Shown in pieces: positions 4,333 to 26,512 of a DNA stretch of 32,000 nucleotides (its first letter is position 1; every line of letters starts with the position of its first letter). Origin of the DNA: an uncultured Chloroflexia bacterium (GTDB lineage Bacteria > Chloroflexota > Anaerolineae > Anaerolineales > Anaerolineaceae); contig OY969938.1 in NCBI GenBank assembly GCA_963704755.1, positions 4,200,001 through 4,232,000 of the forward strand, read 5' to 3'. A program made the translations under genes and the position numbers. The notes beneath the pieces were generated by a model. It ran no database searches. It was not told the DNA's origin and saw nothing but the letters and a program-made list of their open reading frames with translations.

Positions 4333-6510
4333 GCGGTCCTTCCGAAAAAAAGCAAAAATCCCCAACTAAAAAAAACGACGCACTCCCTGAAAGCGAATTG
4401 TCTAATTCATTTGCCGATCGCATCGGCGGTCTATTGCAGAAATTCGACCGCTTTACCTGGGATGTGGTTGGCGTTATTCTGATTGCTTTCAGCCTGGTGA
4501 CGGTGTTAGCCCTGGCCGGTTTGACCAAGGGCGTTTTACTCGACCCCTGGCGTAAGTTCCTGTTGGACGGGCTGGGGTCGGGCAGTTACCCGGCCTTTGT
4601 CCTGATCGGTTGGCTGGGGGTGTGGATTCTCCGCCGGCGGATGGAGAAAACCGCCCGCCTGAACCTGGGCCGGGTGCTCGCCCTGGAAGGCCTGGTCTTC
4701 GTGGCGATGGCCTTTCTTTCGCTGATCAATGGCAATGCCCTCGACCGGGCCGCCCAGGGGCAGGATGGCGGTGTTGTGGGCTGGGGATTGGCCAAGCTGG
4801 TCAGTTTGCTGCTGCCGCTGCCCTGGAGCACTATTTTACTGATCGTCCTGGGAGTGTGGTTTCTGCTGATCGGTTTCGGCGTGATGGACTGGATCGCGGG
4901 TGTGGTATCCCGCTGGCTGGCCTCTCCACTGCCCGAGGTCGATCTGGCCCAAATCCCTTTGCCCGAACCGGAAGCAGCCCCTTCAACAAATGGCGCGGAC
5001 AAGAAAAAAGGAATATCCGCAGAGGGCGGCATCCCCATCCCGGTGGTGGCCTCCCGGCGAGAAGAAAACCTGCCTCCGCTGACCCTATTGACCCAGGAAG
5101 AAGAGAATGGGATCGATGAAGACCGGATTCTGGCGGTGGCCAAAAAAATCGAGAAGACCCTGGCCGAGTTTGGTGTTCCTTCGCACGTAGCCGGGTATCG
5201 GGTTGGCCCCGCGATTACTCAATTTGCCGTCGAGCCGGGTTTCATCGAAAAAACCGGCCCGGATGGCAGTACCGTCCGGCAGAAAGTTAGAAGTCTCGCA
5301 AATCTCCAACCTTTCACGTGATTTGACCCTGGCGCTGGCAGCCGACCGCCTGCGCATCGAAGCGCCGGTGCCGGGCCATTCGTATGTGGGGGTGGAAGTG
5401 CCTAATTCCAGCACCAACCTGGTGCGGTTGCGGGCGATATTGGAATCGACAGAGTTCCACCAAATGGATTTGTCGCTGGCAATGGGCCTGGGTCGAGATG
5501 TATCCGGCCTGCCGGTAGTGGCCGACCTGACCCGTATGCCGCACATGCTGGTAGCCGGTACGACCGGTTCGGGTAAATCGGTGTGCCTGGCTTCGATCAT
5601 CACCTGTTTCGTGATGAACAATCCACCCAACCGCCTGAAGCTGGCTATCCTGGATCCCAAGATGGTCGAGCTGGTGCGGTTCAATGGCTTGCCGCACATC
5701 CTGGGCAAGGTGGAGACCGAGATCGAGCGCATGCTGGCCGTGCTGCGCTGGGCCCTGGCCGAAATGGACCAGCGCTACCGGCTGTTGGAAACGGCCAACG
5801 CACGTGACTTGAAAGCCTACAACCGTAAAGCGGAAAAGCGCGGCCAGGAGCCGCTGCCTTACGTGGTCATCATCATCGACGAATTGGCCGACCTGATGAT
5901 GTCGGCCCCGGACCAGACCGAGCACAGCCTGGTGCGGCTGGCCCAGATGGCCCGCGCGGTGGGCATCCACCTGGTGGTGGCCACCCAGCGGCCCAGTACC
6001 GACGTGGTTACCGGGTTGATCAAAGCCAATTTCCCGGCCCGGATCGCGTTTGCGGTGGCCTCATCGATCGATTCGCGGGTGATCCTGGACTCCAACGGCG
6101 CGGAAACGCTGTTGGGCCGCGGAGACATGCTCTTCCTCAACCCCGAATCAGGCGTACCTCAGCGTGCCCAGGGTGTACTCCTGCAGGATCAGGAAGTCAA
6201 CCGGGTGATCGGGTTCTGGCAGCGGGCGATGGCGCAGCGCGTAGAAGAAGCTGCTCCCTGGGAAGAAATGATCGAGGACGAAAGCGAGGAAGGCGACGAC
6301 CTGATCGATGAAGCCATCGAGCTCTTGCGCAAGACTTAACGAGCCAGCGCCAGTCTCCTGCAGCGCCGTCTGCGAATTGGCTTTCCCCGGGCGGCCCGCC
6401 TGTTGGATGAGCTGGAAGAGCGAGGCGTGGTCGGCCCGTCCCAAGGCGGAGGCAAAGACCGCGAGGTGTTGATCGATCCAGAGGACGCGGAAGCGGATAT
6501 CGATGATTAA
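4329..6510 (+). pseudogene. ftsK: DNA translocase FtsK/SpoIIIE, interrupted by one frameshift and one in-frame stop
   Basis: ORF 4329-5321 encodes the TM region plus linker, and its ATG overlaps the S1 gene stop as ATGA. It continues in the +1 frame (5290-6336) with Walker A VAGTTGSGKS and Walker B IIIDELADL. Removing one A at 5291/5292 reads QKVRVSQISNLSRDL, an FtsK-like junction. An in-frame TAA at 6337-6339 is followed, in the same frame (6340-6507), by [33 protein letters not shown], which is the FtsK gamma winged-helix domain. The final stop is 6508-6510. Confidence 0.85.
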
Positions 6511-9308: not shown

Positions 9309-10710
9309 GCTCCGACCGGCTTTGATCGTTGCCCGCCGGGAAGTCCGCGACCAGTTCCGCGATTGGCGCATCATTTTCCCGATCATCTTCCTGACCCTGT
9401 TTTTCCCGTTCTTGATGAACTGGACCGCCCAGATCATGCTGAATTTTGTGCGCGGCTACGGCGCCAGCATTATCGGCGAGCGGATGGTGCCATTTTTGCT
9501 GATGATCGTCGGCTTTTTCCCGATCTCGACCTCGCTGGTGATCGCCCTGGAGAGTTTCGTCGGCGAAAAAGAACGCGGCAGCATCGAGCCGCTGCTCAGC
9601 TCGCCGCTAAAAGATTGGCAGCTATACCTGGGCAAGCTGCTTTCCTCCACCGCGCCGCCGCTTTTGGGTAGCTTTACCGGCATGGCGGTTTACCTGGCCG
9701 GGCTGGCCCTCAGCCACGTCGCTTTACCGGACGCTAATTTGCTGGTGCAAATCCTGGTTTTGACCGTGGTCCAGGCGGTGGTGATGGTCAGTGGAGCGGT
9801 GGTCGTTTCCACCCAGGCGACCTCGGTGCGGGCCTCGAACCTGCTGGCCTCTTTCATTGTCATCCCCATGGCCTTACTGGTACAGGGCGAGAGTGTGGTC
9901 ATGTTCTGGGGCCGCAATACCCTGTCCCTGTGGTGGATCGTTCTCGGACTGGCCGTGCTGGCGGCTTTGCTGGTGCGGGTGGGGTTGTCGCACTTCCAGC
10001 GCGAAGAGCTTTTAGGCCACGAACTGGACGTTTTGAACCTGCGCTGGGGCTGGCATGTATTCAAAAGCGCTTTTAGCGGCGGGGCGAGGAATATCCTGGA
10101 TTGGTTCGGAAAAGCCTGGCGAGACGTGTTCTCGCGGATGAAATGGACCCTTCTGGCGGTGACGGGGGTGACGGTCGCGTCGGTTTTCCTGGGCGCCGGT
10201 GAGGCGGCTGTTTTCCCGATTCACTTTTCGACCAGTGTGCTGCCGGAGCGACTGCAAGAGATTACCTCGATCTTCCCACTGGTCTCACCTTTACCGGTCA
10301 TGATGATTTTCTGGCAGAATCTGCGGGTGCTGCTGCTGGGGCTGGTGTTGGGGATACTGTCGTTTGGCGTGCTGGGAATTGTCCCGGTGTTGGCCACGAT
10401 GGGCCTGAGCGGCTACCTGGTCCAGATCCTGGTAAACAATGGGCTGCACAATGTGCCGCTCATTCTGGGATTTTTCCTGCCGCACGGCATCCTGGAAATC
10501 CCGGCGATGATCATTTCGTGCGCCGCGGTGCTGCACATTGGCTTACGATTGGCTACACCTCGCAGCGGCAAAACCGTCGGTGAGGTTTTCCTGACCTCGC
10601 TGGCGGAGTGGGTGAAGATCACCCTGGCCGTAGTAATCCCCCTGCTGCTGGTGGCCGCCTTCCTCGAGGCCTGGGTCACGCCGCGGGTCGTTTTAGCGTT
10701 ACTCCATTGA
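9298..10710 (+). CDS. ABC-2 type permease fused to a SpoIIM/DUF95-like membrane domain
   Basis: The N-terminal half carries the EKERGSIEPLLSSPL motif of ABC-2/NatB-like permeases. The C-terminal half carries FFLPHGILEIPAMIISCAAVL, typical of SpoIIM-like proteins. ATG 9298 overlaps the ATPase stop. Confidence 0.7.
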   Translation: MALELRPALIVARREVRDQFRDWRIIFPIIFLTLFFPFLMNWTAQIMLNFVRGYGASIIGERMVPFLLMIVGFFPISTSLVIALESFVGEKERGSIEPLLSSPLKDWQLYLGKLLSSTAPPLLGSFTGMAVYLAGLALSHVALPDANLLVQILVLTVVQAVVMVSGAVVVSTQATSVRASNLLASFIVIPMALLVQGESVVMFWGRNTLSLWWIVLGLAVLAALLVRVGLSHFQREELLGHELDVLNLRWGWHVFKSAFSGGARNILDWFGKAWRDVFSRMKWTLLAVTGVTVASVFLGAGEAAVFPIHFSTSVLPERLQEITSIFPLVSPLPVMMIFWQNLRVLLLGLVLGILSFGVLGIVPVLATMGLSGYLVQILVNNGLHNVPLILGFFLPHGILEIPAMIISCAAVLHIGLRLATPRSGKTVGEVFLTSLAEWVKITLAVVIPLLLVAAFLEAWVTPRVVLALLH

Positions 10711-10765
10711 CAAAGGGTTTGATATTTTTTCGTGGTTTCACCACGAAAAAATATCAAACCCTTTG
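10711..10765. repeat. 55-nt perfect palindrome (25-bp arms, loop TTTCA) abutting the permease stop codon
   Basis: CAAAGGGTTTGATATTTTTTCGTGG-TTTCA-CCACGAAAAAATATCAAACCCTTTG, read directly from the sequence. The arm is loosely similar to the GGGTGTTTTTATT family. Confidence 0.9.
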
Positions 10766-10876
10766 TTTCTACTCAGGCTAGTTCGGAAATTAGGGGTGTT
10801 TTTATTATTTTTCACGTGCGAAGCACGTGAAAAATAATAAAAACACCCCACTCTTTTGCGGCAGATGAGGAGTTAC
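10765..10876. repeat. Nested-palindrome element, copy A (outer inverted repeats plus 57-nt perfect core palindrome)
   Basis: Outer GTTTCTACTCAGGC (10765-10778) and AGATGAGGAGTTAC (10863-10876). Core 10793-10849 is GGGGTGTTTTTATTATTTTTCACGTGC-GAA-GCACGTGAAAAATAATAAAAACACCCC. 10769-10785 is the exact reverse complement of 11513-11529. Confidence 0.8.
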
Positions 10877-10889
10877 ACCGCATTTTAAG

Positions 10890-11393
10890 TTACCAGCCCT
10901 TCAGGTAAGGCTCCCATTCGGCATTTTCGTTAAGGTGGCGGCCGAAGACAAACACAGCCGAGGCGGTCGGCTCGACCGGTACGCGCTGAGGCTTCATATT
11001 GGCCTCTACCAGGGTACGCCCACCTTTGCGGTGGTTACAGGCGGCGCAGGCCGTAACCACGTTTTCCCAGGTGTGTGGACCGCCCATGTGGCGCGGGATG
11101 ATATGGTCGATGGTCAGGTTGGCAGTACGGCTGCCACAATACTGGCAAGTATAGTTATCTCGCCGGAAGATTTCCCGGCGGGTCAATTTGACATGCGGGC
11201 GAGGACGGTGGATCATTTGCTGCAAACGAATGATCGATGGGCGAGGAAATTCAGCGTTGACGGTGCGGATGTACCCACGCCCATTCAATACCAGCGCAGC
11301 CCGGTTCGTCATGATCAACCCGATGGCACGGTGCATGTTGCAGACGTTAATCGGTTCGAAATTGGCATTGAGGACCAGGACATTCTCGATCAT
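10890..11393 (-). CDS. HNH endonuclease
   Basis: CQYCGSRTANLTIDHIIPRHMGGPHTWENVVTACAACNHRKG is a CxxC..DH..N..CxxC-N HNH zinc-finger nuclease motif. 167 aa, ATG start. Confidence 0.85.
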   Translation of the reverse strand: MIENVLVLNANFEPINVCNMHRAIGLIMTNRAALVLNGRGYIRTVNAEFPRPSIIRLQQMIHRPRPHVKLTRREIFRRDNYTCQYCGSRTANLTIDHIIPRHMGGPHTWENVVTACAACNHRKGGRTLVEANMKPQRVPVEPTASAVFVFGRHLNENAEWEPYLKGW

Positions 11394-11512
11394 AGTACAC
11401 TCTTTCGAAGGATTATAGCACTACGGAAGTTTGTGGTTGGCTATAATAAGGTTAAGAATTGTTAAACATAATGGCTCAGGTTAAATGGAACTGCTCAGTT
11501 CCCCCTATTTTT

Positions 11513-11533
11513 CGAACTAGCCTGAGTAGTTAC
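11513..11533. repeat. Partial element end (inverted-repeat partner of the left end of copy A)
   Basis: CGAACTAGCCTGAGTAG (11513-11529) is the exact reverse complement of 10769-10785. GCCTGAGTAGTTAC (11520-11533) pairs with GTAACTACTCAG (11541-11552) across the loop TAAATAT. Confidence 0.75.
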
Positions 11534-11540
11534 TAAATAT

Positions 11541-11654
11541 GTAACTACTCAGCCATCGCAGAAGAAAAAGGGTGTTTTTATTATTTTTTACATTCGAAGC
11601 ATGTAAAAAATAATAAAAACACCCTCCCCTTCTGAGCCTGCCTGAGTAGTTACC
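11541..11654. repeat. Nested-palindrome element, copy B
   Basis: Outer GTAACTACTCAGCC (11541-11554) and GCCTGAGTAGTTAC (11640-11653), with 14-nt spacers. Core 11569-11625 is AGGGTGTTTTTATTATTTTTTACAT-TCGAAGC-ATGTAAAAAATAATAAAAACACCCT. TAAATAT lies on both flanks. Confidence 0.8.
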
Positions 11655-11680
11655 TAAATATTTTATGAAAGGGCGCTGAC

Positions 11681-12595
11681 ATGAAATGGATCCTGGCAGG
11701 CGGCACCGGTTTGATCGGGACTGCCTTGTGCAAGCAACTTTTGGCCGAGGGGGAGCAGGTATGGGTGCTCAGCCGCAACCCGCAGCCTTCGGGGCTGCCG
11801 GCCGGGGCAGAGGGTTGGCGTTGGGACGGGCGCACCCCGGATGGCTGGGGTCACCTGGTCGAGGAGGCGGATTACATTGCCTGCCTGGCAGGGGAAAACC
11901 TGGGCGCCGGCCGCTGGACGGCTTCCCGCAAACGGGCTTTCTACACCAGCCGGGTCGAACCCGGCCAGGCGATTGTCGAGGCGGTCCGGCGGGCCAATCA
12001 TAAGCCGCGTGCGGTATTGCAAGCTTCGGCAGTTGGATATTACGGCAATAGCGGCGATACGGTTCTGACGGAGCAGTCGCCGGCCGGCCCGGATTACCTG
12101 TCCCAACTGGTGGTCGATTGGGAAAATAGTACGGGCGGGTTGGAGGGTCTCGGTCTGCGCCGGGTGATCACCCGCACCGGGATCGTCCTGGCCCGCGGGG
12201 GCGAGATCCTGAATAAATTTAGGCTGCCGTTTCGCTTTTTCGTGGGCGGCCCGTTGGGAAGCGGCCGACAGTGGCTGCCCTGGATCCACCTGCAGGACCA
12301 GATAAGCGCGATGATTTCCCTGATGCGGAACGAATCCGCCCAAGGGGTATACAACCTGACCGGGCCCAACCCGGTCCGCAATGCCGAATTTGGCAAAGCG
12401 CTGGGTCAGGTGATGCGCCGGCCATACTGGATGCCGGTGCCGGCCTTTGCCCTGCGCCTGGCGCTGGGCGAAATGAGCCAAATGGTCCTGGAAGGTCAGC
12501 GGGCGGTGCCGGCCCGTTTGTTGGAATCGGGCTTTTCGTTTAAATATCCGGAGTTGGAACCGGCGCTGCGGGATTTGTTGGGGAAGGGGAAATAA
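11681..12595 (+). CDS. TIGR01777/YfcH-type SDR epimerase family protein
   Basis: N-terminal Rossmann motif GGTGLIGTAL and a C-terminal DUF1731-like LESGFSFKYPELEPALRDLL. The large antisense ORF 11663-12661 is treated as a shadow. Confidence 0.8.
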   Translation: MKWILAGGTGLIGTALCKQLLAEGEQVWVLSRNPQPSGLPAGAEGWRWDGRTPDGWGHLVEEADYIACLAGENLGAGRWTASRKRAFYTSRVEPGQAIVEAVRRANHKPRAVLQASAVGYYGNSGDTVLTEQSPAGPDYLSQLVVDWENSTGGLEGLGLRRVITRTGIVLARGGEILNKFRLPFRFFVGGPLGSGRQWLPWIHLQDQISAMISLMRNESAQGVYNLTGPNPVRNAEFGKALGQVMRRPYWMPVPAFALRLALGEMSQMVLEGQRAVPARLLESGFSFKYPELEPALRDLLGKGK

Positions 12596-12617: not shown

Positions 12618-12680
12618 GTAGGTTGGGTTGGCGGGGATTGGGAAGTTTTTGTGCGTGTCATAACTCCCCGCTAACCCAAC
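12618..12680 (+). repeat. REP-like hairpin, left (GTAG plus 16-bp arms, 27-nt loop)
   Basis: GTAG (12618-12621), then GTTGGGTTGGCGGGGA (12622-12637) pairing with TCCCCGCTAACCCAAC (12665-12680), with one G.T position. Confidence 0.75.
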
Positions 12681-12682
12681 GG

Positions 12683-12711
12683 GTGGCACAAGTTTCAAAC
12701 TCCTCTATAAT
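12683..12711 (+). promoter_or_regulatory. Candidate promoter giving a leaderless RAYT mRNA
   Basis: GTGGCA (12683-12688), a 17-nt spacer, then TATAAT (12706-12711). The ATG at 12718 is only 6 nt after the -10 box, and no Shine-Dalgarno sequence is visible. Confidence 0.3.
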
Positions 12712-12717
12712 AACCAC

Positions 12718-13257
12718 ATGGATTATCGTCGTACCGTTGCACCTGGGGGAACATTCTTTTTTACGGTGGTAACCTGGAATCGGATGCCAGTTTTTTCTGA
12801 CCCCAACCAAATCGATTTGCTCCGCAAGGCAGTAAGTAAAGTTAAAAAGGATCATCCTTTTCGTATAATCGCCTGGGTAATCTTGCCGGATCATTTACAC
12901 ATGATCTGGCGGCTTCCTGTAAACGATAGCGATTACGCAACACGATGGCGGCTGATAAAAAGCCAATTTACCCATCAGTGGAATGGGAAAGATGCGCAGC
13001 TTGTTTCAAGATCTCGCAAAATGAAGCACGAAGCTGCTGTTTGGCAACGCCGTTATTGGGAGCATCTAATCCGGGACGTGAATGATCTTGACAGACATAT
13101 TGAATATATTCATTACAATCCGGTAAAGCACGGTGTAGTTAAAGCCCCAATTGCCTGGCCATTTTCGAGTTTTAGCGAATATGTACATAGGGGTATTTTT
13201 ACACCGGAATGGGGAGCAAGCAACGATCCGGTTTGCGGCGTTATGGTGATTGAATGA
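12718..13257 (+). CDS. REP-associated tyrosine transposase (RAYT; IS200/IS605 TnpA-like Y1 HUH enzyme)
   Basis: HUH motif within ILPDHLHMIW. Catalytic Tyr region RRYWEHLIRDVNDLDRHIEYIHYNPVKHGVV. 179 aa. Confidence 0.85.
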   Translation: MDYRRTVAPGGTFFFTVVTWNRMPVFSDPNQIDLLRKAVSKVKKDHPFRIIAWVILPDHLHMIWRLPVNDSDYATRWRLIKSQFTHQWNGKDAQLVSRSRKMKHEAAVWQRRYWEHLIRDVNDLDRHIEYIHYNPVKHGVVKAPIAWPFSSFSEYVHRGIFTPEWGASNDPVCGVMVIE

Positions 13258-13278
13258 TTCCAGGCGATTTGCCGAAAT

Positions 13279-13345
13279 GTTGGGTTTTGGGGTGGATTAT
13301 TGTTAACAAAAAAACCTTAAATTCTCACCCCAAAACCCAACCTAC
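13279..13345 (-). repeat. REP-like hairpin, right (GTAG plus 16-bp arms, 31-nt loop, inverted relative to the left copy)
   Basis: On the minus strand: GTAG (13345-13342), then GTTGGGTTTTGGGGTG (13341-13326) pairing perfectly with 13294-13279. Confidence 0.75.
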
Positions 13346-13368: not shown

Positions 13369-13429
13369 AGGGGTGTTTTTTATTGTTATTCGCGGGCTTC
13401 GCCCGCGAATAACAATAAAAAACACCCCT
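13369..13429. repeat. Core-only copy C of the palindrome family (61 nt, 29-bp arms)
   Basis: AGGGGTGTTTTTTATTGTTATTCGCGGGC-TTC-GCCCGCGAATAACAATAAAAAACACCCCT, which is GCGAAGC on the minus strand. It sits 7 nt from the stop of the SEDS-PBP gene. No outer repeats were found. Confidence 0.85.
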
Positions 13430-13436
13430 AATTTAT

Positions 13437-16061
13437 TTACTGTTTTGCCGGGCTCAGCGCTGCATCTAACACCGAATGGCCGATCTGTTCGGCCAGATCG
13501 GGGTTGTTTTCTTCAAGCACCAGGGCGATGGCCAGGGGCTGCCCGTTCCAGGCCGGCAGGGTGCCGCCGACGTACCAGGTATATTCCTTTTGGCCGGAGC
13601 TGGCCTGGCCGATCGTCTCCCAGACGGGTAAATCGACCGAGGCTAAATTACTCACAGTGGCATCGAAGTTGGACTGGGTAATGACCTTCTCGGACGGATC
13701 CGAGGGCAAGACCACCCAACCTTGTTGGGGAGTTTGGACCGAGATCACCAGCAGGGGGCTGGGACGTACACCGTGGTTGCTGAGAGTGGCTGCAGCGAGG
13801 GCCATTTGCAACGGCGATACCTGGATCCCGGATGCCCCCAAAATGGCCTGGCCCGCGTCCTTGACCGGTTCGTTCGGGCTGGCGGTGGCAACCGGCAGGC
13901 GTAGATTGGGTTGGTTGTAGAAGCCAAAATCAGTGAACATTTCCTGGATCTGGCTGGCAGTGATCAGGCCGTCGAAACTGGCCAGGGCGCCCGGACAGCC
14001 GGCCTGGATGGCGGTTTCCCAGGTCAGCGGCGCCTGGGGCGTTACCGAACAGGTCTGTAGCTTGCCGTCCACCGTCAGGGAAAGGCTCTTGGGCGCCTGG
14101 GAGGTCGTTTCTCCTAACCAGGCGTACAGGAATGGCCCCAGCACCGTTCCGGGCGGATATTGGCCCTGGGTGGCCCGATTCACTAAAGGCGCGTTGGCAT
14201 CGTTGATCCAGGTATTCCAGTTGGCGTCCAGGGTATTGGGATCGAAATAGGGGTGCGAGGCGAGGGACAGAATCTCACCGGTCTGGGCGTTGAGCAGCAC
14301 CAGGGCGCCGGAGTGATCGCCCAAGAGGCTGTCGGCTTCCTGTTGTAAATTCAAATCCAGGCTCAGGCGGATGTCGAGGCCGTTGGGCGGTTGGGTATAG
14401 ATCAGCCGCGAAAGCCAGTAGGTTGAAGCCGGGACGCCCTGCTGCCCGGACAGGTAAGCATTGAGGGTGTCTTCCAGCCCGGATTTTCCGTAGGTGCTAT
14501 TCGCATAGCCGATAGTGGTGCTGAGGGGCGGGTAAAGCAGGCTGCGGGTGTAATTTCCCGGCGTCCCAACGGTCACGGCAATATCCTGGCTGCGGCGGTC
14601 GAGGAGCGAGCCACGCGGGACGAAACGCTCATCGATGATCCAGCGCAGGTTGTCCGTGCGGGCCAGCAGCCCGTCCGAGCGAATGACACCCCACCAGCCG
14701 GCGATCAACCCCAAGGCGCCAAAGCCGCACAGGAGCAGCCCGGAGGTCGCCAGGTACGAACTGGGATGGAGGGCAGGGAGGGGCGGGGGCTCTTCCGGCC
14801 GTCCGATCAATAGGAGCAGTGTCAGCGAAACGAACGAAATCAATAAAGACGATCCGCCATAGGAGACGAATGGCAAGGTGACCCCGGTGAGCGGCAGCAG
14901 GCGGAAGTTGCCGCCCAGGATCAAAATAGCTTGCAGCCCGAAATAGATCGAAATGCCAAAAGCCAGCAGGCGTTGATACAGGTTAGGTGCCTGGATGCCG
15001 ATGCGCAGGCCGCGGAAGCATAACAGCGTAAAGAGCAAAATGATCGCCAGGATGCCCATCAAGCCGGTCTCTTCGGTAATCGCCGAGGCGATAAAGTCAC
15101 TATGCGCCAGCGGTACCAGCCCGGGACTTCCCAGGCCGGGGCCAGAGCCGATCAGCCCACCGGCGGCGATCGAGATCAAGGATTGGACGATCTGGTATGA
15201 GCGGTTGGCCGAATTGGCCCAGGGGTTCAGCCAGGCGTCGACGCGCAGGCGGATGACGTCGAAGGACAGATAGCCGGCAACAACCGCAGCGACCAGGGCG
15301 ACCCCGCAGATGATCAAGATCCGCCGCCGCCCGGAAGCCATGAATACCACCAGGGTGTAGATCGCCACAACCAGGGTCGCGGTACCCAGGTCGCGTTGGG
15401 CGACCAGTAGCAAAGCGGCCGCGCCGGTCACCACCAGGGTGGGGGTGAGCAATTGGCCGAGGCTGTAACTGACCGGGAGTTTATCGGCCAGATAGGCGGC
15501 CAGGTAAATGACTAAAAGAAGTTTGAGCGGCTCGGAGGGTTGAAAGTACAGGCCACAGCAGCCCAACCACAGGCGCGGACCGACCCCACCGGGATATTTG
15601 CCAAAAACGAAGGTCAGCACGATCAGAAGCAGGCCGGCAGTCAGCCAGATGTACTTGTAGCGGCGCAGCAGGTTGAGCACCTGTGAGAAGTGCATGCCCA
15701 GTTCGATCACCAACAACCCGACTGCCAGCCAGACGGTCTGGCGCAGGCCTAAAGTAGTATCCAGCCGATAAATGGTCAGGATGCCCCAGCCGGTCAGCAA
15801 GCCGGCGATTGGCAGCAGGAAGGGGTCATGTTCGGGGGCGTAATGGTTTACCCGCCGGTAGATCAACGCGAAGCCGGCCAGCCAGACCAGGAACCCAATC
15901 CATTGGACCCAGCGGTAAGTAGTGTTCCAGGAATGCACCCGCACGGCCTGAGAAAGGGTCAGAATCAGGCTGTAGAGGAACAAAAACCCGGCCGCCAGTT
16001 TCATCAGGCGGGCTTCGAGTTCACTTTGAGGTGCGTTGACGCCGGGGAAAAACAGGTTCAC
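13437..16061 (-). CDS. SEDS (FtsW/RodA) glycosyltransferase fused to a class-B PBP-like domain with degenerate catalytic motifs
   Basis: N-terminal SEDS motifs PSEPLKLLLVIYLAAYL, HSDFIASAITEETGLMG and LPFVSYGGSSLL. C-terminal PBP2-like motifs RGSLLDRRSQ, GKSGLEDTLN, GALVLLNAQTGEILSLASHPYFDPN and VSPLQMALAAATLSNHG. The GTG start at 16061 overlaps the mtnP stop (GTGA). Confidence 0.85.
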   Translation of the reverse strand: MNLFFPGVNAPQSELEARLMKLAAGFLFLYSLILTLSQAVRVHSWNTTYRWVQWIGFLVWLAGFALIYRRVNHYAPEHDPFLLPIAGLLTGWGILTIYRLDTTLGLRQTVWLAVGLLVIELGMHFSQVLNLLRRYKYIWLTAGLLLIVLTFVFGKYPGGVGPRLWLGCCGLYFQPSEPLKLLLVIYLAAYLADKLPVSYSLGQLLTPTLVVTGAAALLLVAQRDLGTATLVVAIYTLVVFMASGRRRILIICGVALVAAVVAGYLSFDVIRLRVDAWLNPWANSANRSYQIVQSLISIAAGGLIGSGPGLGSPGLVPLAHSDFIASAITEETGLMGILAIILLFTLLCFRGLRIGIQAPNLYQRLLAFGISIYFGLQAILILGGNFRLLPLTGVTLPFVSYGGSSLLISFVSLTLLLLIGRPEEPPPLPALHPSSYLATSGLLLCGFGALGLIAGWWGVIRSDGLLARTDNLRWIIDERFVPRGSLLDRRSQDIAVTVGTPGNYTRSLLYPPLSTTIGYANSTYGKSGLEDTLNAYLSGQQGVPASTYWLSRLIYTQPPNGLDIRLSLDLNLQQEADSLLGDHSGALVLLNAQTGEILSLASHPYFDPNTLDANWNTWINDANAPLVNRATQGQYPPGTVLGPFLYAWLGETTSQAPKSLSLTVDGKLQTCSVTPQAPLTWETAIQAGCPGALASFDGLITASQIQEMFTDFGFYNQPNLRLPVATASPNEPVKDAGQAILGASGIQVSPLQMALAAATLSNHGVRPSPLLVISVQTPQQGWVVLPSDPSEKVITQSNFDATVSNLASVDLPVWETIGQASSGQKEYTWYVGGTLPAWNGQPLAIALVLEENNPDLAEQIGHSVLDAALSPAKQ

Positions 16062-16933
16062 GATTGCAAATATTTATCCACCAACAGCGAAAGCTTCTGG
16101 CGCGTCTCGGCCGGTACGACGGCGGGGTTGGTGATGAGAGCTTTTTCCAGCGCATTGGCACATTCGCAGGTGCGGTCCCGGTCCTGCAGCATAGGCGCCA
16201 GATTACGAATGGTCTTTTGGGCAGCCTGGGTGTTCTGGGCCAGGGTCTTGACGACCATCTCCACGCTGACGGCCTCGGCAGTCTGGTGCCACACGTCGTA
16301 ATCGGTGATGTGGGCCAGGCAGGCGTAGCACAATTCGGCTTCCCGCGCCAGGAAAGCCTCCGGGGAGGCGGTCATGCCAATGATGGAAACGCCCCACGAA
16401 CGGAACAGGTGCGACTCGGCCTTGGTAGAAAAACGAGGGCCTTCGATCGTGATGAACGTGCCGCCTTTATGGGTATTGACCTCAGTTGAGACGGCGGCCT
16501 GGTACAATGCAGCTGAAAAATCCGGGCAGAATGGGTCAGCGGTGCTGACGTGGGCGACCAGGCCCTCACCAAAGAAGGTGCGTTTGCGGTCGCGGGTAAA
16601 ATCGATGATCTGGTCCGGGACAACGAATTCCCCGGGCTGATAGTCGTGGCGCAGCGATCCGCAGGCACTGATGCCGACCACATAGGAAACCCCCAGGGCT
16701 TTGAGGGCGTAGATGTTGGCGCGGTAATTGACCTCGCTGGGCAAAATGAAATGACCGATGCCGTGCCGGGCCAGAAAAGCAATCCGTACACCGGCCAGTT
16801 CGCCAATTATAATGGGCGAAGAGGGCTTGCCAAAGGGCGTATCGGTCTCTACGGTCTGGGTGTTTTCGAGGCCTTCGAAGGCATACAGGCCAGAACCGCC
16901 AATCACACCAAGGATGGGTCTATCCGACATCAT
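16058..16933 (-). CDS. mtnP: S-methyl-5'-thioadenosine phosphorylase
   Basis: GVIGGSGLY, PFGKPSSPIIIGELAGVRIAFLARHG, PSEVNYRANIYALKALGV and MTASPEAFLAREAELCYA are typical of MTAP. Confidence 0.9.
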   Translation of the reverse strand: MMSDRPILGVIGGSGLYAFEGLENTQTVETDTPFGKPSSPIIIGELAGVRIAFLARHGIGHFILPSEVNYRANIYALKALGVSYVVGISACGSLRHDYQPGEFVVPDQIIDFTRDRKRTFFGEGLVAHVSTADPFCPDFSAALYQAAVSTEVNTHKGGTFITIEGPRFSTKAESHLFRSWGVSIIGMTASPEAFLAREAELCYACLAHITDYDVWHQTAEAVSVEMVVKTLAQNTQAAQKTIRNLAPMLQDRDRTCECANALEKALITNPAVVPAETRQKLSLLVDKYLQS

Positions 16934-16954
16934 ATTTATTCTCCAGGTAGGGGA

Positions 16955-17398
16955 TTACTCCCCAGTTCGTTGTTTGGGAAGGATTTCGATGCGAAAACTG
17001 CTCTGACCGCAGCGGACCTCGTCACCAGAGACGACCACCGTCACGGTGGTCAGGCGTTCGTCGTTCAAGAACGTGCCGTTGGTCGAGCTCAGGTCTTCGA
17101 TCCACCATTGGTTCTGGTGATACGACAGGCGTGCATGGCGGGCTGAAACGGTCTCGTTGGGGATGGCAAAGGCACAGGTTGGGTCCCGGCCGATGATAAC
17201 CTCGGGTTTATTGTAGGTGGCTGTTTCGCCCTCCAGGAAGTCCAGGGGGGTCAGCAGTAATTCGGGGATGTGACGGGCTGCCAGCGATTGGGTGTGATAG
17301 CGTAAATCACGCCAAAGCGTATAGAGGCACCATCCCAGGAAGGCGTACAGGATGGCCGTCATTAGAATGCGAAGGATCAGTACGAGGATGCCACTCAT
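16955..17398 (-). CDS. FHA domain protein with N-terminal TM helix (FhaB/FipA-like)
   Basis: TM helix ILVLILRILMTAILYAFLGWCLY, followed by the FHA core IGRDPTCAFAIPNETVSARHARLSY..WWIEDLSSTNGTFLN. Confidence 0.8.
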   Translation of the reverse strand: MSGILVLILRILMTAILYAFLGWCLYTLWRDLRYHTQSLAARHIPELLLTPLDFLEGETATYNKPEVIIGRDPTCAFAIPNETVSARHARLSYHQNQWWIEDLSSTNGTFLNDERLTTVTVVVSGDEVRCGQSSFRIEILPKQRTGE

Positions 17399-17410
17399 GA
17401 TTTGAGTATA

Positions 17411-18166
17411 CTAGGTTGGTGTGGTTTCTCCACGTTTTGCCCCTTGGGTATTTTCTTCCCCGTAGATGAGCTGGACGCCGGCCAGTGAAATCACATCTCC
17501 GGGCTGCAAGGTGTATTGGTTGACGCGGTTGCCGTTGATATAGCTGCCCCCGGTAGAGTTCAGGTCGAAGAGGATCCATTTTCCGCGTACACAGCGGATT
17601 TGTGCGTGCCAGCGAGAAACGCGCAGGTCGTTCAGGACGACATGGTTGGTCTTCATCCGGCCGATGTTGGTGACCGGCTGTGAAAGGGGGTAAAAGTCGA
17701 CGCCGTGCAGGATGAGGAACGAGTTGACGCTGACCGTCTCGGGTGGATCCGCTTCTTCGATAGGCAGGAGGCGCAAAGCCTCGGTGGAACCTGAACCGGC
17801 CTGGTCGTAGTGGGCCTGGACGGTCAGGTCGTTGAGACTCAAGGAATCATCACTGGCCAGATGAATGGCCGGTGGTGCGGCGAACCGGGTGCCTGATTCG
17901 ATGACCGTATCCTGGAGAGCCTGGTTCAGCCAGTTCAGCCAGTCAGGGTGGTTTTGCCAGGCCAACACGTTATCCGGGTTCATCCCGAAAACAATATTGT
18001 TGGGCAGCAACTGGTTCTCGGCAGGGCTTTCGAAGAGTTGATTGCGTAAAGCCTCGGTGATCTGGCGGGCCAATCGCGGTTGGCGGTTCGGCCAGGGCAG
18101 CCAGGTGAAACGGTTTTCGATCAGGTTTTGCAGCTTTGATTCGATGAAATCGAGCTTGGACCTCAT
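17411..18166 (-). CDS. FhaA-like protein (DUF3662-type N-terminus plus C-terminal FHA domain)
   Basis: Preferred start is ATG 18166 (MRSKLDFIESKLQNLIENRF). C-terminal FHA: IGRMKTNHVVLNDLRVSRWHAQI..LFDLNSTGGSYINGNRV. The ORF-track start at 18208 is a TTG that lies inside repeat-like sequence. Confidence 0.75.
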   Translation of the reverse strand: MRSKLDFIESKLQNLIENRFTWLPWPNRQPRLARQITEALRNQLFESPAENQLLPNNIVFGMNPDNVLAWQNHPDWLNWLNQALQDTVIESGTRFAAPPAIHLASDDSLSLNDLTVQAHYDQAGSGSTEALRLLPIEEADPPETVSVNSFLILHGVDFYPLSQPVTNIGRMKTNHVVLNDLRVSRWHAQIRCVRGKWILFDLNSTGGSYINGNRVNQYTLQPGDVISLAGVQLIYGEENTQGAKRGETTPT

Positions 18167-18221
18167 AGGTGTAATTATATAACCTGTTTTACCTTGCCAG
18201 TCAGGCAAGGATTAATAAGTC

Positions 18222-18276
18222 CCCGAAATTGAGGTGTTTGCGCCGGCGAAGCCGGCGCAAACACCTCAATTTCGGG
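18222..18276. repeat. Divergent copy D of the palindrome family (55 nt, 26-bp arms, GAA loop)
   Basis: CCCGAAATTGAGGTGTTTGCGCCGGC-GAA-GCCGGCGCAAACACCTCAATTTCGGG. The outer-repeat-like motifs are weak: CCAGTCAGGC (18197-18206) and AGTTGAGCGGTTAG (18291-18304). Confidence 0.8.
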
Positions 18277-18312
18277 ATTCTTTCCTGTAAAGTTGAGCGG
18301 TTAGCAGGAAAA

Positions 18313-22057: not shown

Positions 22058-22098
22058 GTGAGGGTTATTGATCTGCTCGGCGGATCAATAACCCTCAC
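22058..22098 (+). terminator. 41-nt near-perfect palindrome downstream of the SBP gene (hairpin, no U-tract)
   Basis: GTGAGGGTTATTGATC (22058-22073) pairs with GATCAATAACCCTCAC (22083-22098). The apex GC-TCG-GC adds 2 bp. No T-run follows, so terminator function is uncertain. Confidence 0.35.
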
Positions 22099-23419: not shown

Positions 23420-23834
23420 ATTTCATGAAGAAAGCAGTTAGGCTGTTTACTTCACGAAATTTATTTGACTACCCAGTCTTTAAAGTCAAGAGTTCAGGAT
23501 TAGCAGAAAAAAATAATTCTGGGCAAGGTTGTTCAAATATCGACAATCAAAGGAATCAAAACTTTTCTACCTTTATATAAGGCAGAAATTTGAGTCATTT
23601 ATCATCAGGGCGAAGACGCGAAAGTTTACTTTGTTCAAGCGCTAATGCAAAACTTTTTTTCTAAGAATGATCGAATGCAAGCCTTAGAAGTACGATGAGT
23701 TTAAAATAAACACGACAGAAAAAATCCTTTATAAGTTGTACCTTCGAGAAACCGTGCCAGACGCTAATAGAAATGTCACGATTTCAAAGAAAACGAAAAG
23801 CAGGTAACAAAGGTCATACTTTTTAACTTATTCC

Positions 23835-23944
23835 GTAACTGCTCAGGCAAGTGCGCAAGGCGAGGGTGTTTTATTGTTTTTTGTGCGCGAAGCGCACAAA
23901 AAACAATAAAACACCCTAAACCTCTGCGGTAGCTAAGTAGTTGC
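23835..23944. repeat. Nested-palindrome element, copy E
   Basis: Outer GTAACTGCTCAGGC (23835-23848) and AGCTAAGTAGTTGC (23931-23944). Core 23863-23917 is AGGGTGTTTTATTGTTTTTTGTGCGC-GAA-GCGCACAAAAAACAATAAAACACCCT. CTTATT occurs at 23827-23832 and at 23945-23950. Confidence 0.8.
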
Positions 23945-23970
23945 CTTATTTCAAAAGAAACTGTTTTTAG

Positions 23971-24588
23971 TTATCCATTCTCTTTTTTACCTCTACGGAG
24001 TTGAATGTCAGCAATTATTCCAATGAGGACTGTCAGGCTAATTGAAACAAACAAAAATAGTATTCCCGCTGCAAAGCTGGGATTTTTGCATACATTGTTT
24101 GGCCCGAAAAAATCCTGAAAACAAAATTCTTCAAATTGACCTATAGTAATAAAAGATAAAATGCAAAGAGGGAAAAAAGAAATTAATGCAATTAAACCAG
24201 CAATGTAAGCAGCTTTTCTCTTTACCGTTTCTTTCATAAAAAACGAAAGCACAATTATTGTGCCACCAAGGAAGAAAGCTATCATGCCAGAAAAAGTAGT
24301 AATTCCGGTTACAATATCTATTACCGCATCACCTTGAGTAATTTTAATCCAAGGTAAAAAGGTGCTTAGAACAATTCCAGTTCCTGCAACAGCAGTAAAA
24401 TAACGAAGACTTGGAGAAAAGTTTTCTACAGAATTTGCCTGATCATCAACTAATTGCTGTTCTATAGATTTTTCTAGAGGTAATTGTCTTTTGTCGGTAG
24501 TTATTTTTGTTTGCGGGATAGGCACACCACAAAAAGAGCAAAAATTTGAATCTCCATTAATTTGGTTTCCGCAATTAGAACAATACAT
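23971..24588 (-). CDS. Zinc-ribbon protein with four TM helices (AT-rich island gene 2)
   Basis: N-terminal MYCSNCGNQINGDSNFCSFCG (CxxC-x10-CxxC) followed by four hydrophobic helices. AGGGGA lies upstream of the ATG. No family recognised beyond the zinc ribbon. Confidence 0.6.
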   Translation of the reverse strand: MYCSNCGNQINGDSNFCSFCGVPIPQTKITTDKRQLPLEKSIEQQLVDDQANSVENFSPSLRYFTAVAGTGIVLSTFLPWIKITQGDAVIDIVTGITTFSGMIAFFLGGTIIVLSFFMKETVKRKAAYIAGLIALISFFPLCILSFITIGQFEEFCFQDFFGPNNVCKNPSFAAGILFLFVSISLTVLIGIIADIQLRRGKKENG

Positions 24589-24646
24589 CTTTTTTCCCCT
24601 AGAGAATTACCTTTTGCTTTTCTATGAACAAAATCTTTCGAAAGGG

Positions 24647-25375
24647 TTATTTTATTTTTTCGTTGATGCTATCCTTACCTTCTTCATAATTTTGACTAGA
24701 CATAGCCATTAAAGCACCAATCCAATCGTTATAAGAGTAAAATTGGGTACTCTCAGCATCTGCATTAATATAATCAACGCTAAGATTTTGCAAAAACGAA
24801 TTGTAGTTATTGAGATACAAATAATCCATATTACCAGATCTTTTTAATCCATCATCCCATACCTGTAGAGTAAGATCCCATCCTCTCAAAGCTTCATCAA
24901 AATTGCTCTTTTCAGTGGTTAATGCAGAAGGCCAAGAGTTTTCTAATTGGTTATAATCGCTTTTTACATTTGCAAGTTGGTTCCTAAAATCACTATTGGT
25001 TACACCTTGCGAGGTCATAATATTTAATTTGTCTGATTCAATTAGAAATTGTTTCACCTCGGTTTTAAATTTTGCGGGTATTGAATTCTTTTGTATTGCA
25101 ATAACAATAAAGATTACAATAACAATAAAAATCAATCCTCCAAGAATCTTAGTTGCAGTTTTGAACCATTTATCGTCATCGATAAATCTATTAATATTAG
25201 TAGTACTGTTTTCTTCAATCTCTGGTTGTAAACCAATAATGCTATGTTTTTCTGCTTCTTTAAAAGCTGTTGCGTCTGAAACATAAAAGTTTTCATCATT
25301 TGTGGTAGGTGCTCCGCAAAAGGAGCAAAATTTTGAGTTATCAAGAATTTGTTTACCGCAGGCTGAACAATACAT
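24647..25375 (-). CDS. Zinc-ribbon protein with one TM helix and an extracytoplasmic helical domain (AT-rich island gene 1)
   Basis: N-terminal MYCSACGKQILDNSKFCSFCG, paralogous to the downstream gene. TM helix ILGGLIFIVIVIFIVIAI. AGAGGGAGAG lies upstream of the ATG. Confidence 0.6.
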   Translation of the reverse strand: MYCSACGKQILDNSKFCSFCGAPTTNDENFYVSDATAFKEAEKHSIIGLQPEIEENSTTNINRFIDDDKWFKTATKILGGLIFIVIVIFIVIAIQKNSIPAKFKTEVKQFLIESDKLNIMTSQGVTNSDFRNQLANVKSDYNQLENSWPSALTTEKSNFDEALRGWDLTLQVWDDGLKRSGNMDYLYLNNYNSFLQNLSVDYINADAESTQFYSYNDWIGALMAMSSQNYEEGKDSINEKIK

Positions 25376-25575
25376 CTCTCCCTCTTATATTCAAACCTTA
25401 CAAAAGCTAATAATCTATATTTAAATTTTGTTAACTATTTTACAATATTTTTAAATTTATTCATTAAAATCTCACCAATTTTAAGTCCTCTCATCCTATA
25501 AATTTTGGTTATCATCTTAATTATTTGCGCTGATTTACTAGCCTCAAATTTCGTAGCTACTCAGCACATTAATAA

Positions 25576-26453: not shown

Positions 26454-26512
26454 AACGACGAACGGGGCTGATGTTCGCGGCTTTGCCGCGAACATCAGCC
26501 CCGTTCGTCGTT
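26454..26512 (-). terminator. 59-nt perfect palindrome ending the minus-strand operon (candidate bidirectional terminator)
   Basis: AACGACGAACGGGGCTGATGTTCGCGGC-TTT-GCCGCGAACATCAGCCCCGTTCGTCGTT. It is GC-rich, followed by TTTT on the plus strand and by an A/T-rich run on the minus strand, and sits 15 nt downstream of the GNAT stop. Confidence 0.55.

Follow-up and report, generated by a model that had tools for sequence, protein, structure and literature searches.

We analyzed a 32,000-nucleotide stretch (the window) of contig OY969938.1 from an uncultured Chloroflexia bacterium of the Anaerolineaceae, with a focus on a set of short, palindromic units that are putative MITEs (miniature inverted-repeat transposable elements). 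All units in the window are intergenic. Unit A is in the spacer that separates the convergent ABC2/SpoIIM gene from a conserved HNH gene, unit B and a shorter copy of 47 nt lie between the divergent HNH and epimerase genes, and unit E lies between a DUF554 gene and a low-GC island. The closest named homologues of the HNH protein of the window come from Thermanaerothrix, Bellilinea and Anaerolineaceae. A first-pass annotation, made from the letters of the window alone, had described units A, B and E as hairpin cores nested within outer inverted repeats. Reading the sequence confirmed this arrangement of outer (terminal) inverted repeats (TIRs), spacers and a central hairpin in all three, and the coordinates given for units A and E were correct; unit B starts where it had been placed but ends at 11653 rather than 11654. 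The units and the direct repeats at their flanks are as follows:

10765–10876: unit A (112 nt), an older copy whose ends (GTTTCTACTCAGGC / AGATGAGGAGTTAC) are degenerate and whose core hairpin (10793–10849) is perfect.
11487–11533: internally deleted copy (47 nt) whose core and one spacer are gone; left TIR (GGAACTGCTCAGTT), CCCC plus spacer TATTTTTCGAACTA, and an exact right TIR at 11520–11533.
11533–11540: left duplication copy of unit B, CTAAATAT; its first base doubles as the last base of the 47-nt copy.
11541–11653: unit B (113 nt), the best-preserved copy; left TIR at 11541–11554 (GTAACTACTCAGCC), core hairpin at 11569–11625, right TIR at 11640–11653 (GCCTGAGTAGTTAC).
11654–11661: right duplication copy of unit B, CTAAATAT, identical to 11533–11540 at 8/8 positions.
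23827–23834: left duplication copy of unit E, CTTATTCC.
23835–23944: unit E (110 nt); left TIR GTAACTGCTCAGGC, core hairpin at 23863–23917, right TIR AGCTAAGTAGTTGC.
23945–23952: right duplication copy of unit E, CTTATTTC, which matches 23827–23834 at 7/8 positions.

The outer inverted repeat of units A, B and E is 14 nt long (GTAACTRCTCAGSC; consensus GTAACTACTCAGGC ... GCCTGAGTAGTTAC). It is separated from a core hairpin of 26–27 bp with a 3-nt loop by spacers of 13–16 nt, a somewhat wider range than the 13–14 nt given originally for this same inner layout. The units are small (110–113 nt, or 47 nt in the deleted copy), and no listed open reading frame (ORF) lies inside them. Across the 32 kb of the window, the family is represented by three full copies and one deleted copy, together with a solo end and a possible relic. 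At up to three mismatches, GTAACTACTCAGGC matches the window eight times compared to 1.08 matches expected, a count reached by 0 of 100 shuffles, and the core pattern likewise gives eight matches (four palindromes, each on both strands) where none is expected. When folded as a single strand, unit B forms one long hairpin (–36.9 kcal/mol, z = –13.1) with all 12 of 12 terminal base pairs formed and with the CAGAAG/CTTCTG spacer pairing included, as the first-pass annotation had predicted. Whole-unit folds of units A and E gave z scores of –10.6 and –8.4, respectively. The motif at 11487–11498, previously taken to be a solo repeat, is in fact the left end of the 47-nt deleted copy. The right TIR of this copy, at 11520–11533, had been overlooked as a third exact occurrence of the outer repeat. 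The right half of the 47-nt copy and the left half of unit A are 86% complementary. Unit B directly abuts the 47-nt copy, that is, it was inserted at its edge.

Direct repeats at the flanks of units B and E had also been noticed before, and both hold up as duplications with a revised length. The repeat around unit B is an 8-bp CTAAATAT and not the 7-bp TAAATAT, and the repeat around unit E is not a CTTATT 6-mer with a 2-nt offset but an 8-bp repeat with one mismatch that abuts both ends. A statistical test of boundary direct repeats, suggested in the first-pass annotation, was carried out on 40 TIR-bounded units taken from the window, from two metagenome contigs of 56% G+C and from Saprospiraceae genomes. 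Left and right flanks were identical at 6.35 of 8 positions on average; 27 of the 40 units reached at least 7/8, and 14 were perfect. By contrast, permuted left/right pairings averaged 2.98 and never had more than five units at 7/8 or better, and shifting the register by 1–3 nt left 0–1 of the 40 units at that level. The duplication is exactly 8 bp, since base –8 is doubled in 34/40 units and base –9 in only 5/40. Target sites are 75% A+T.

These related copies came from searches of increasing breadth. The exact core pattern had no match in GTDB representative genomes, among which the source species is not included, and two viral-contig scans gave no match. A metagenome scan yielded six loci only, three of which are related (L004, L006 and L007); L004 (49 nt, coreless like the 47-nt copy) and L006 (100 nt, with a different interior), on the two contigs of 56% G+C, both have duplications matching at 7/8. 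A looser scan for the foot of the core (GGGTGTTTTT N25–50 AAAAACACCC) gave more than 101 loci. Among them, Saprospiraceae (Bacteroidota) metagenome-assembled genomes (MAGs) hold many copies of an ~130-nt element that has the outer repeat of the window as its ends and is flanked by 8-bp direct repeats. This element consists of GTAACTACTTAGCAGG, hairpin 1 (GGGTGTTTTTTGGGGAAAAATT-TTC-AATTTTTCCCCAAAAAACACCC) and CAAAAT, followed by hairpin 2 (GTGGGAGGAGAGAGAAAAAAT-GAA-ATTTTTTCTCTCTCCTCCCAC) and ACCCTCCTAAGCAGTTAC. In one such locus (L059, MAG JADKBS01), a copy at 5321–5450 with duplication GAAAATTT sits inside hairpin 1 of another copy at 5225–5489 with duplication GTTTTGTT, and this nesting is direct evidence that the family has been active repeatedly. 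The earlier suggestion that AT-rich flank duplications mark insertion events is supported by this nested copy and by the exact 8-bp register across the family.

Chloroflexota MAGs also contain repeat families with other ends, namely TTAGAATCTATCCGAAAATT (L062, L099, L064, L073), GTTTAGTTTTGTGAGC (L030, L077) and TGTAGTGGTCACGAAT (L017, L058, L097). These repeats have a central hairpin with the GGGTGTTTTT/AAAAACACCC foot, flanked by small hairpins of the GCGGCTAAAGCCGC type, and some copies resemble chimeras of different halves joined at the core. We treated the apparent chimeras as unreliable because contigs often break at core palindromes, and recombination at the core, which such half-elements might suggest, was not relied on given the likelihood of mis-joins. 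A Logan contig (L120, ERR11571143) ends exactly at 23863, the edge of core E, and contigs L064, L077, L023, L093 and L101 end at or within a few bases of core palindromes. Such assembly breaks may explain the poor recovery of related copies from metagenomes.

We also compared orthologous spacers in relatives that share 82–89% HNH protein identity with the window. In L009 and L010, whose HNH protein is 89% identical to that of the window, the spacer between the HNH and ABC2 genes is 62 nt long without a unit, versus 180 nt with two hairpins in the window, and the HNH–epimerase spacer lacks both unit B and the 47-nt copy; L008 has no unit in the corresponding spacers either. Exact matches to the HNH and DUF554 proteins came only from the source contig and from near-identical Logan contigs, which carry the same copies, and no record of the epimerase protein was found. 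The empty site of unit B is predicted to read ...GAGTAGTTA-CTAAATAT-TTTATG, without the 113 nt, and the empty-site junction of unit E ...TTTTTAA-CTTATT(C/T)C-AAAAG. The ends, the 8-bp duplication, the lack of coding capacity, copies in various stages of decay and the nested and adjacent insertions are all observed directly, as is the absence of units from the spacers of these relatives, whose intergenic DNA does not align with the window at base resolution.

The ends of the units point to a probable source of mobility. Within the searchable literature, we found the end sequences only in a report on ISDge4 of Deinococcus geothermalis, an insertion sequence (IS) of the IS66 family, ISBst12 group, with a single 449-aa transposase (PMC12898284). 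Its TIRs are GTGACTACTCAGCA and GTAACTGCTCAGCA, it is flanked by an 8-bp direct repeat, and copy-and-paste transposition has been reported for it (PMC12898284). Canonical IS66 elements make 8-bp repeats too, but their ends begin with GTAAGCG (PMC11946415). We then read eight single-ORF elements end to end, of which six have a gene annotated as "IS66 family transposase" and two have a called gene with PF03050:

L114, IS66-like element on Geobacillus kaustophilus pHTA426, 14107–15741: ends GTATCTATTCAGCCC / GTAACTATTCAGCCC, duplication GACGAGTT.
L115, Ca. Chlorohelix (Chloroflexota): ends GTAACAATTCAGCC / GTAACAGTTCAGAC.
L116, Deinococcus wulumuqiensis: GTAACTGCTCAGC at both ends.
L117, Acaryochloris: end GTTACTGCCCAGGC.
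L118, B. thuringiensis: GTAACTACTCAGC at both ends.
L119, Planococcus: GTAACTACTTAGG at both ends.
L121, metagenome contig: ends GTAACTAACTAGG / GTAACTATTCAGG.
L122, metagenome contig: ends GTAACTACACAGG / GTAACTACTCAGGAGGG.

All eight, 1454–1635 bp in length, are bounded by the same ends as the units, and 6/8 have perfect 8-bp duplications. The TIR of unit B equals the ends of the B. thuringiensis element at 13/13 positions, and the left TIR of unit E (GTAACTGCTCAGGC) equals the ends of the Deinococcus element (GTAACTGCTCAGC), which are also those of ISDge4. More generally, the unit B ends (GTAACTACTCAGCC/GTAACTACTCAGGC) and the left end of unit E show 12–13/13 identity to several ISBst12-group ends; we write the B. 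thuringiensis/Deinococcus type as GTAACTACTCAG and the end pair of the family as GTAACTRCTYAGS...SCTRAGYAGTTAC. As a tblastn query, the Geobacillus pHTA426 transposase retrieved 190 plasmid records. The group is present in Chloroflexota (Ca. Chlorohelix, L115), and PF03050 (DDE_Tnp_IS66) was identified in the transposase of Chlorohelix as well as in its homologues. Because the units have the same ends as elements of this group together with 8-bp duplications, they are, judging from sequence, very probably MITEs of the ISBst12 group (IS66 family) with 8-bp target-site duplications.

Several observations weigh against this assignment. The copy counts are those of a 32-kb window in a 4.87-Mb contig. 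The flanks of unit A match at 5/8 positions only and those of the 47-nt copy at 1/8, so neither has a duplication; both copies look old. The Saprospiraceae branch supplies most of the data behind the duplication statistics, and only six Chloroflexota-like units are in the set, four of them at 7/8 or better. Base-exact empty sites were not recovered from the closest relatives because these are too divergent in intergenic DNA. Pfam searches revealed no IS66-type transposase gene or remnant in the window or the fetched loci, and tblastn with the eight ISBst12-type transposases gave no match in the window or any fetched locus. Lastly, the unit interiors are unlike the subterminal regions of the eight IS examined, hence the units are not simple internal-deletion derivatives.

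Classical bacterial MITEs are small, non-coding, intergenic, TIR-bounded and multi-copy, form hairpins, are flanked by duplications, and are presumed to be moved in trans by an IS transposase. The units resemble such families (Correia/NEMIS of Neisseria, ERIC/IRU, RUP, MITEAba12 and the cyanobacterial Nezha) in these structural traits, and differ from them in parent IS group, ends and duplication length. With ISBst12-group IS such as ISDge4 and the Geobacillus pHTA426 element, they share the TIR (GTAACTRCTYAGS, 13–14 nt) and the 8-bp duplication. However, those IS are ~1.45–1.65 kb long and encode a single-ORF DDE transposase, whereas the units are 110–113 nt long without a transposase, and have as their interior a long palindrome unrelated to the subterminal IS sequences. 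In the proposed mechanism, the ~14-nt ends (GTAACTRCTYAGS) would be bound by an ISBst12-type transposase whose gene lies, or once lay, elsewhere in the genome and which would move the ~110-nt element in trans; integration at AT-rich sites would proceed via 8-bp staggered cuts, the repair of which would leave the 8-bp direct repeats. We infer the mobilization in trans, the copy-and-paste mode (as reported for ISDge4) and the partner transposase in the genome. We found no MITE assigned to IS66/ISBst12 in the searchable literature; MITEs are a familiar kind of element, and this family of units seems to be undescribed.

We considered whether the units might instead be REP/REPIN elements (REP, repetitive extragenic palindrome) spread by a REP-associated tyrosine transposase (RAYT; HUH/Y1 type) with GTAG as the recognition tag, a link that the first-pass annotation had drawn from the GTAG in the outer repeat. 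REPs have neither TIRs nor target duplications, and HUH/RAYT-type mobility (IS200/IS605 type) leaves no target-site duplication. REPs are described as GTAG-tagged palindromes of 20–40 nt (PMC3733652). The window does encode a genuine RAYT, 1 kb from unit B, and copy C, an orphan core hairpin described below, lies 24 nt from its right-hand REP:

12618–12680: left REP of the RAYT, GTAGGTTGGGTTGGCGGGGA...TCCCCGCTAACCCAAC.
12718–13257: RAYT ORF (NCBIfam REP_Tyr_transpos; E = 1.4e-59, score 200 bits, cut-off 80).
13279–13345: right REP of the RAYT, a mirror image that ends in CTAC.

The units are like REP/REPIN elements in being short, intergenic and hairpin-forming and in containing GTAG, but they have DDE-type TIRs and 8-bp duplications, neither of which HUH mobility makes, and they are not the repeats that flank the RAYT. 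Those are REPs of a different sequence (GTAGGTTGGGTT...), with GTAG abutting a 16-bp stem; the two stems differ by compensatory changes, and the whole locus spans 12618–13345. RAYT homologues in L112 (64% identity, with REPs in arrays) and in L113 (an Anaerolineaceae MAG) are flanked by the same GTAGGTTGGGT motif, and neither GTAACTAC nor GGGTGTTTT was found in their flanks. When the RAYT was used as a tblastn query against 100 core-containing loci, none had a RAYT nearby. In the units, GTAG lies within the DDE-type IS end, 4 nt from its outer end and 13–16 nt from the hairpin, and is 3' of the hairpin instead of 5' and not directly at the palindrome end. Since the RAYT has its own classic GTAG-tagged REPs, we regard it as a bystander, and the probability that it spread the units as next to nil.

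It is also very unlikely that the units are immobile functional hairpins, such as terminators, mRNA stabilizers or protein-binding palindromes, whose end and flank matches are incidental. Most long hairpins of the window do sit at the 3' ends of genes or in the spacers of convergent gene pairs, the neighbouring hairpin at 10710–10766 scores as terminator-like, the core stems are kept perfect by compensatory changes, and in L008 the same spacer contains further long hairpins. Nevertheless, incidental matches would not account for 8-bp duplications in exact register family-wide, for unit ends identical to IS ends, or for nested and adjacent insertions, and unit B lies between divergent gene starts and not at a 3' end. 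A terminator role in particular is at odds with the cores themselves, in which the GC-rich apex has a T-run on its 5' side and an A-run on its 3' side whichever strand is read, opposite to the order in an intrinsic terminator; a terminator scan called the 10710 hairpin but not cores A, B and E. A secondary function of inserted copies is possible. We see even less reason to assign the units to another family that makes 8-bp duplications. By their family properties (ISfinder), ISL3, IS1595, IS256, IS6 and ISH6 give duplications of this length as well, so that the length is not limited to the ISBst12 group, and the three-gene canonical IS66 elements also give 8 bp (PMC11946415). However, in nine independent elements of the ISBst12 group the ends agree almost base for base with the 13–14 terminal bases of the units, the units share only GTAA with the canonical IS66 end, and no other family was found with matching ends; such an origin is extremely unlikely. 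Integron attC sites, protelomerase sites and IS200/IS605 ends were also considered and were dropped once the TIRs and the 8-bp duplication had been established.

Having favored ISBst12-type MITEs, we examined the central hairpin, which sets the units apart. The interior is a long palindrome that is not derived from the known IS. The central stems pair perfectly in cores A, C and E, core B has a single mismatch, and between copies the core arms differ at 4–9 of 27–29 positions. Nearly every core change is therefore mirrored on the other arm, as the stems stay paired while the copies differ. By contrast, the TIR-plus-spacer arms within a unit are only 17–21/28 identical. Because changes in the core arms are compensated while the TIR-spacer arms decay, the core is probably either under structural constraint or homogenized by intrastrand templated correction of a quasi-palindrome. 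This compensatory upkeep of a perfect 26–29-bp central stem is more extreme than is known for classical MITE families. The apex is usually GC-clamped with a GAA/TTC triloop and the mid-stem is AT-rich; d(GCGAAGC) is known as an unusually stable DNA mini-hairpin. As candidate roles, the hairpin may let the two ends fold back, or it may influence the transcript. Core B contains TTTACA-16-AATAAT (10/12) on both strands facing outward, at 11587–11614 (+) and 11607–11580 (–), and core A contains promoter-like hexamers (9/12, 10804–10838), both being consensus matches only. Unit B ends 20 nt before the start codon region of the epimerase gene (ATG at 11681).

Hairpins with the same foot also occur without TIRs, in copy C and in Anaerolinea MAG loci, as well as in the Saprospiraceae ISBst12-type MITEs and in the Chloroflexota repeats with other ends, although these loci were picked by the search pattern itself. 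One could postulate that the central hairpin is a functional module, and that unrelated MITE families have captured or depend on this common hairpin, but we judge this unlikely. Such a module could be a cruciform or single-strand hairpin that acts in transposition or replication; alternatively, it could be a two-way promoter or an RNA-stability element.

Beyond the units and the 47-nt copy, three further features of the window relate to the family:

13369–13429: copy C, an orphan core hairpin with a 29-bp perfect stem and the foot GGGTGTTTT.../...AAAACACCC.
18192–18304: copy D (113 nt), a possible ancient copy assigned with low confidence; core at 18222–18276, 16-nt spacers.
25553–25566 (+): solo TIR-like motif GTAGCTACTCAGCA, which shares 13/14 positions with the ISDge4 end GTGACTACTCAGCA; an unrelated imperfect hairpin comes next.

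Copy C, which sits between the RAYT locus and the 3' end of a gene for a RodA–penicillin-binding protein fusion, has no recognizable TIRs. Copy D has a perfect 26-bp hairpin of different sequence, end-like motifs TGCCAGTCAGGC (8/12) and TTGAGCGGTTAG (9/12) spaced as in a unit, and no duplication at its flanks. The weak outer matches of copy D and the lack of ends in copy C agree with the first-pass annotation, and the solo motif had been correctly recognized there but placed one base off, at 25552–25565. No convincing right end was found for this solo motif. In total, seven perfect or near-perfect hairpins of 55–61 nt with 3-nt loops are present in the window, four of which belong to the core family (A, B, C and E) and three of which have other stems (10710–10766, 18222–18276 and 26454–26512). 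The hairpin at 10710–10766, with a 27-bp perfect stem and a terminator-like tail, has as its first base the final one of the ABC2/SpoIIM stop codon, and its arms resemble those of a core-like hairpin of L008 (15035–15086). The one at 26454–26512 has a 28-bp perfect stem and a TTT loop, and a further hairpin at 22058–22098 has 18 pairs. None of the three at 10710–10766, 26454–26512 and 22058–22098 has TIRs.

Unit E and the solo motif border, on the left and right respectively, a low-GC island (23950–25550) of 29–36% G+C compared to ~55% elsewhere. The island carries two paralogous zinc-ribbon ORFs on the minus strand (23971–24588 and 24647–25375) that share a 72-nt stretch at 75% identity, and it seems to have been acquired horizontally. 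We rejected a composite transposon in which unit E and the solo end at 25553 enclose the island, because there is neither a convincing right end nor a matching duplication. The HNH gene (10890–11393, minus strand, 167 aa) is highly conserved and single-copy-looking in Anaerolineae, with 4140 homologues at E ≤ 1e-30, and is syntenic in relatives; upstream of it (11394–11440), a motif GTGCTATAATCC(n)CGAAAGAG is shared by the window, L008 and L009. The HNH domain of the encoded protein also matches HNH models of IscB/Cas9, with scores below threshold. The gene is no passenger of the MITEs that bracket it. Further along, 13437–18208 (minus strand) is an actinobacterial-style FHA operon that encodes FhaA-like and FhaB-like proteins, a member of the PNP_UDP_1 phosphorylase family and an 874-aa protein in which FtsW/RodA is fused to a penicillin-binding transpeptidase; in L008, the gene call for the counterpart of this fusion gives 601 aa, and two short ORFs come after it. 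Neither an Rfam search at the gathering threshold nor a tRNA scan had any match in the window.

The assignment of the units as ISBst12-type MITEs predicts the type of the mobilizing transposase and the form of the empty site, with one copy of the 8-mer, as well as more copies interrupting AT-rich intergenic DNA across the genome. It would extend the little-studied ISBst12 group to non-autonomous derivatives in Chloroflexota and Bacteroidota. In practice, the elements break short-read assemblies, as illustrated by the contig that ends exactly at core E. They also place strong palindromes, and possibly outward promoter-like hexamers, beside gene starts, as next to the epimerase gene 20 nt from unit B. 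Lastly, the kept central stem bears on how palindromes persist in bacterial repeats.

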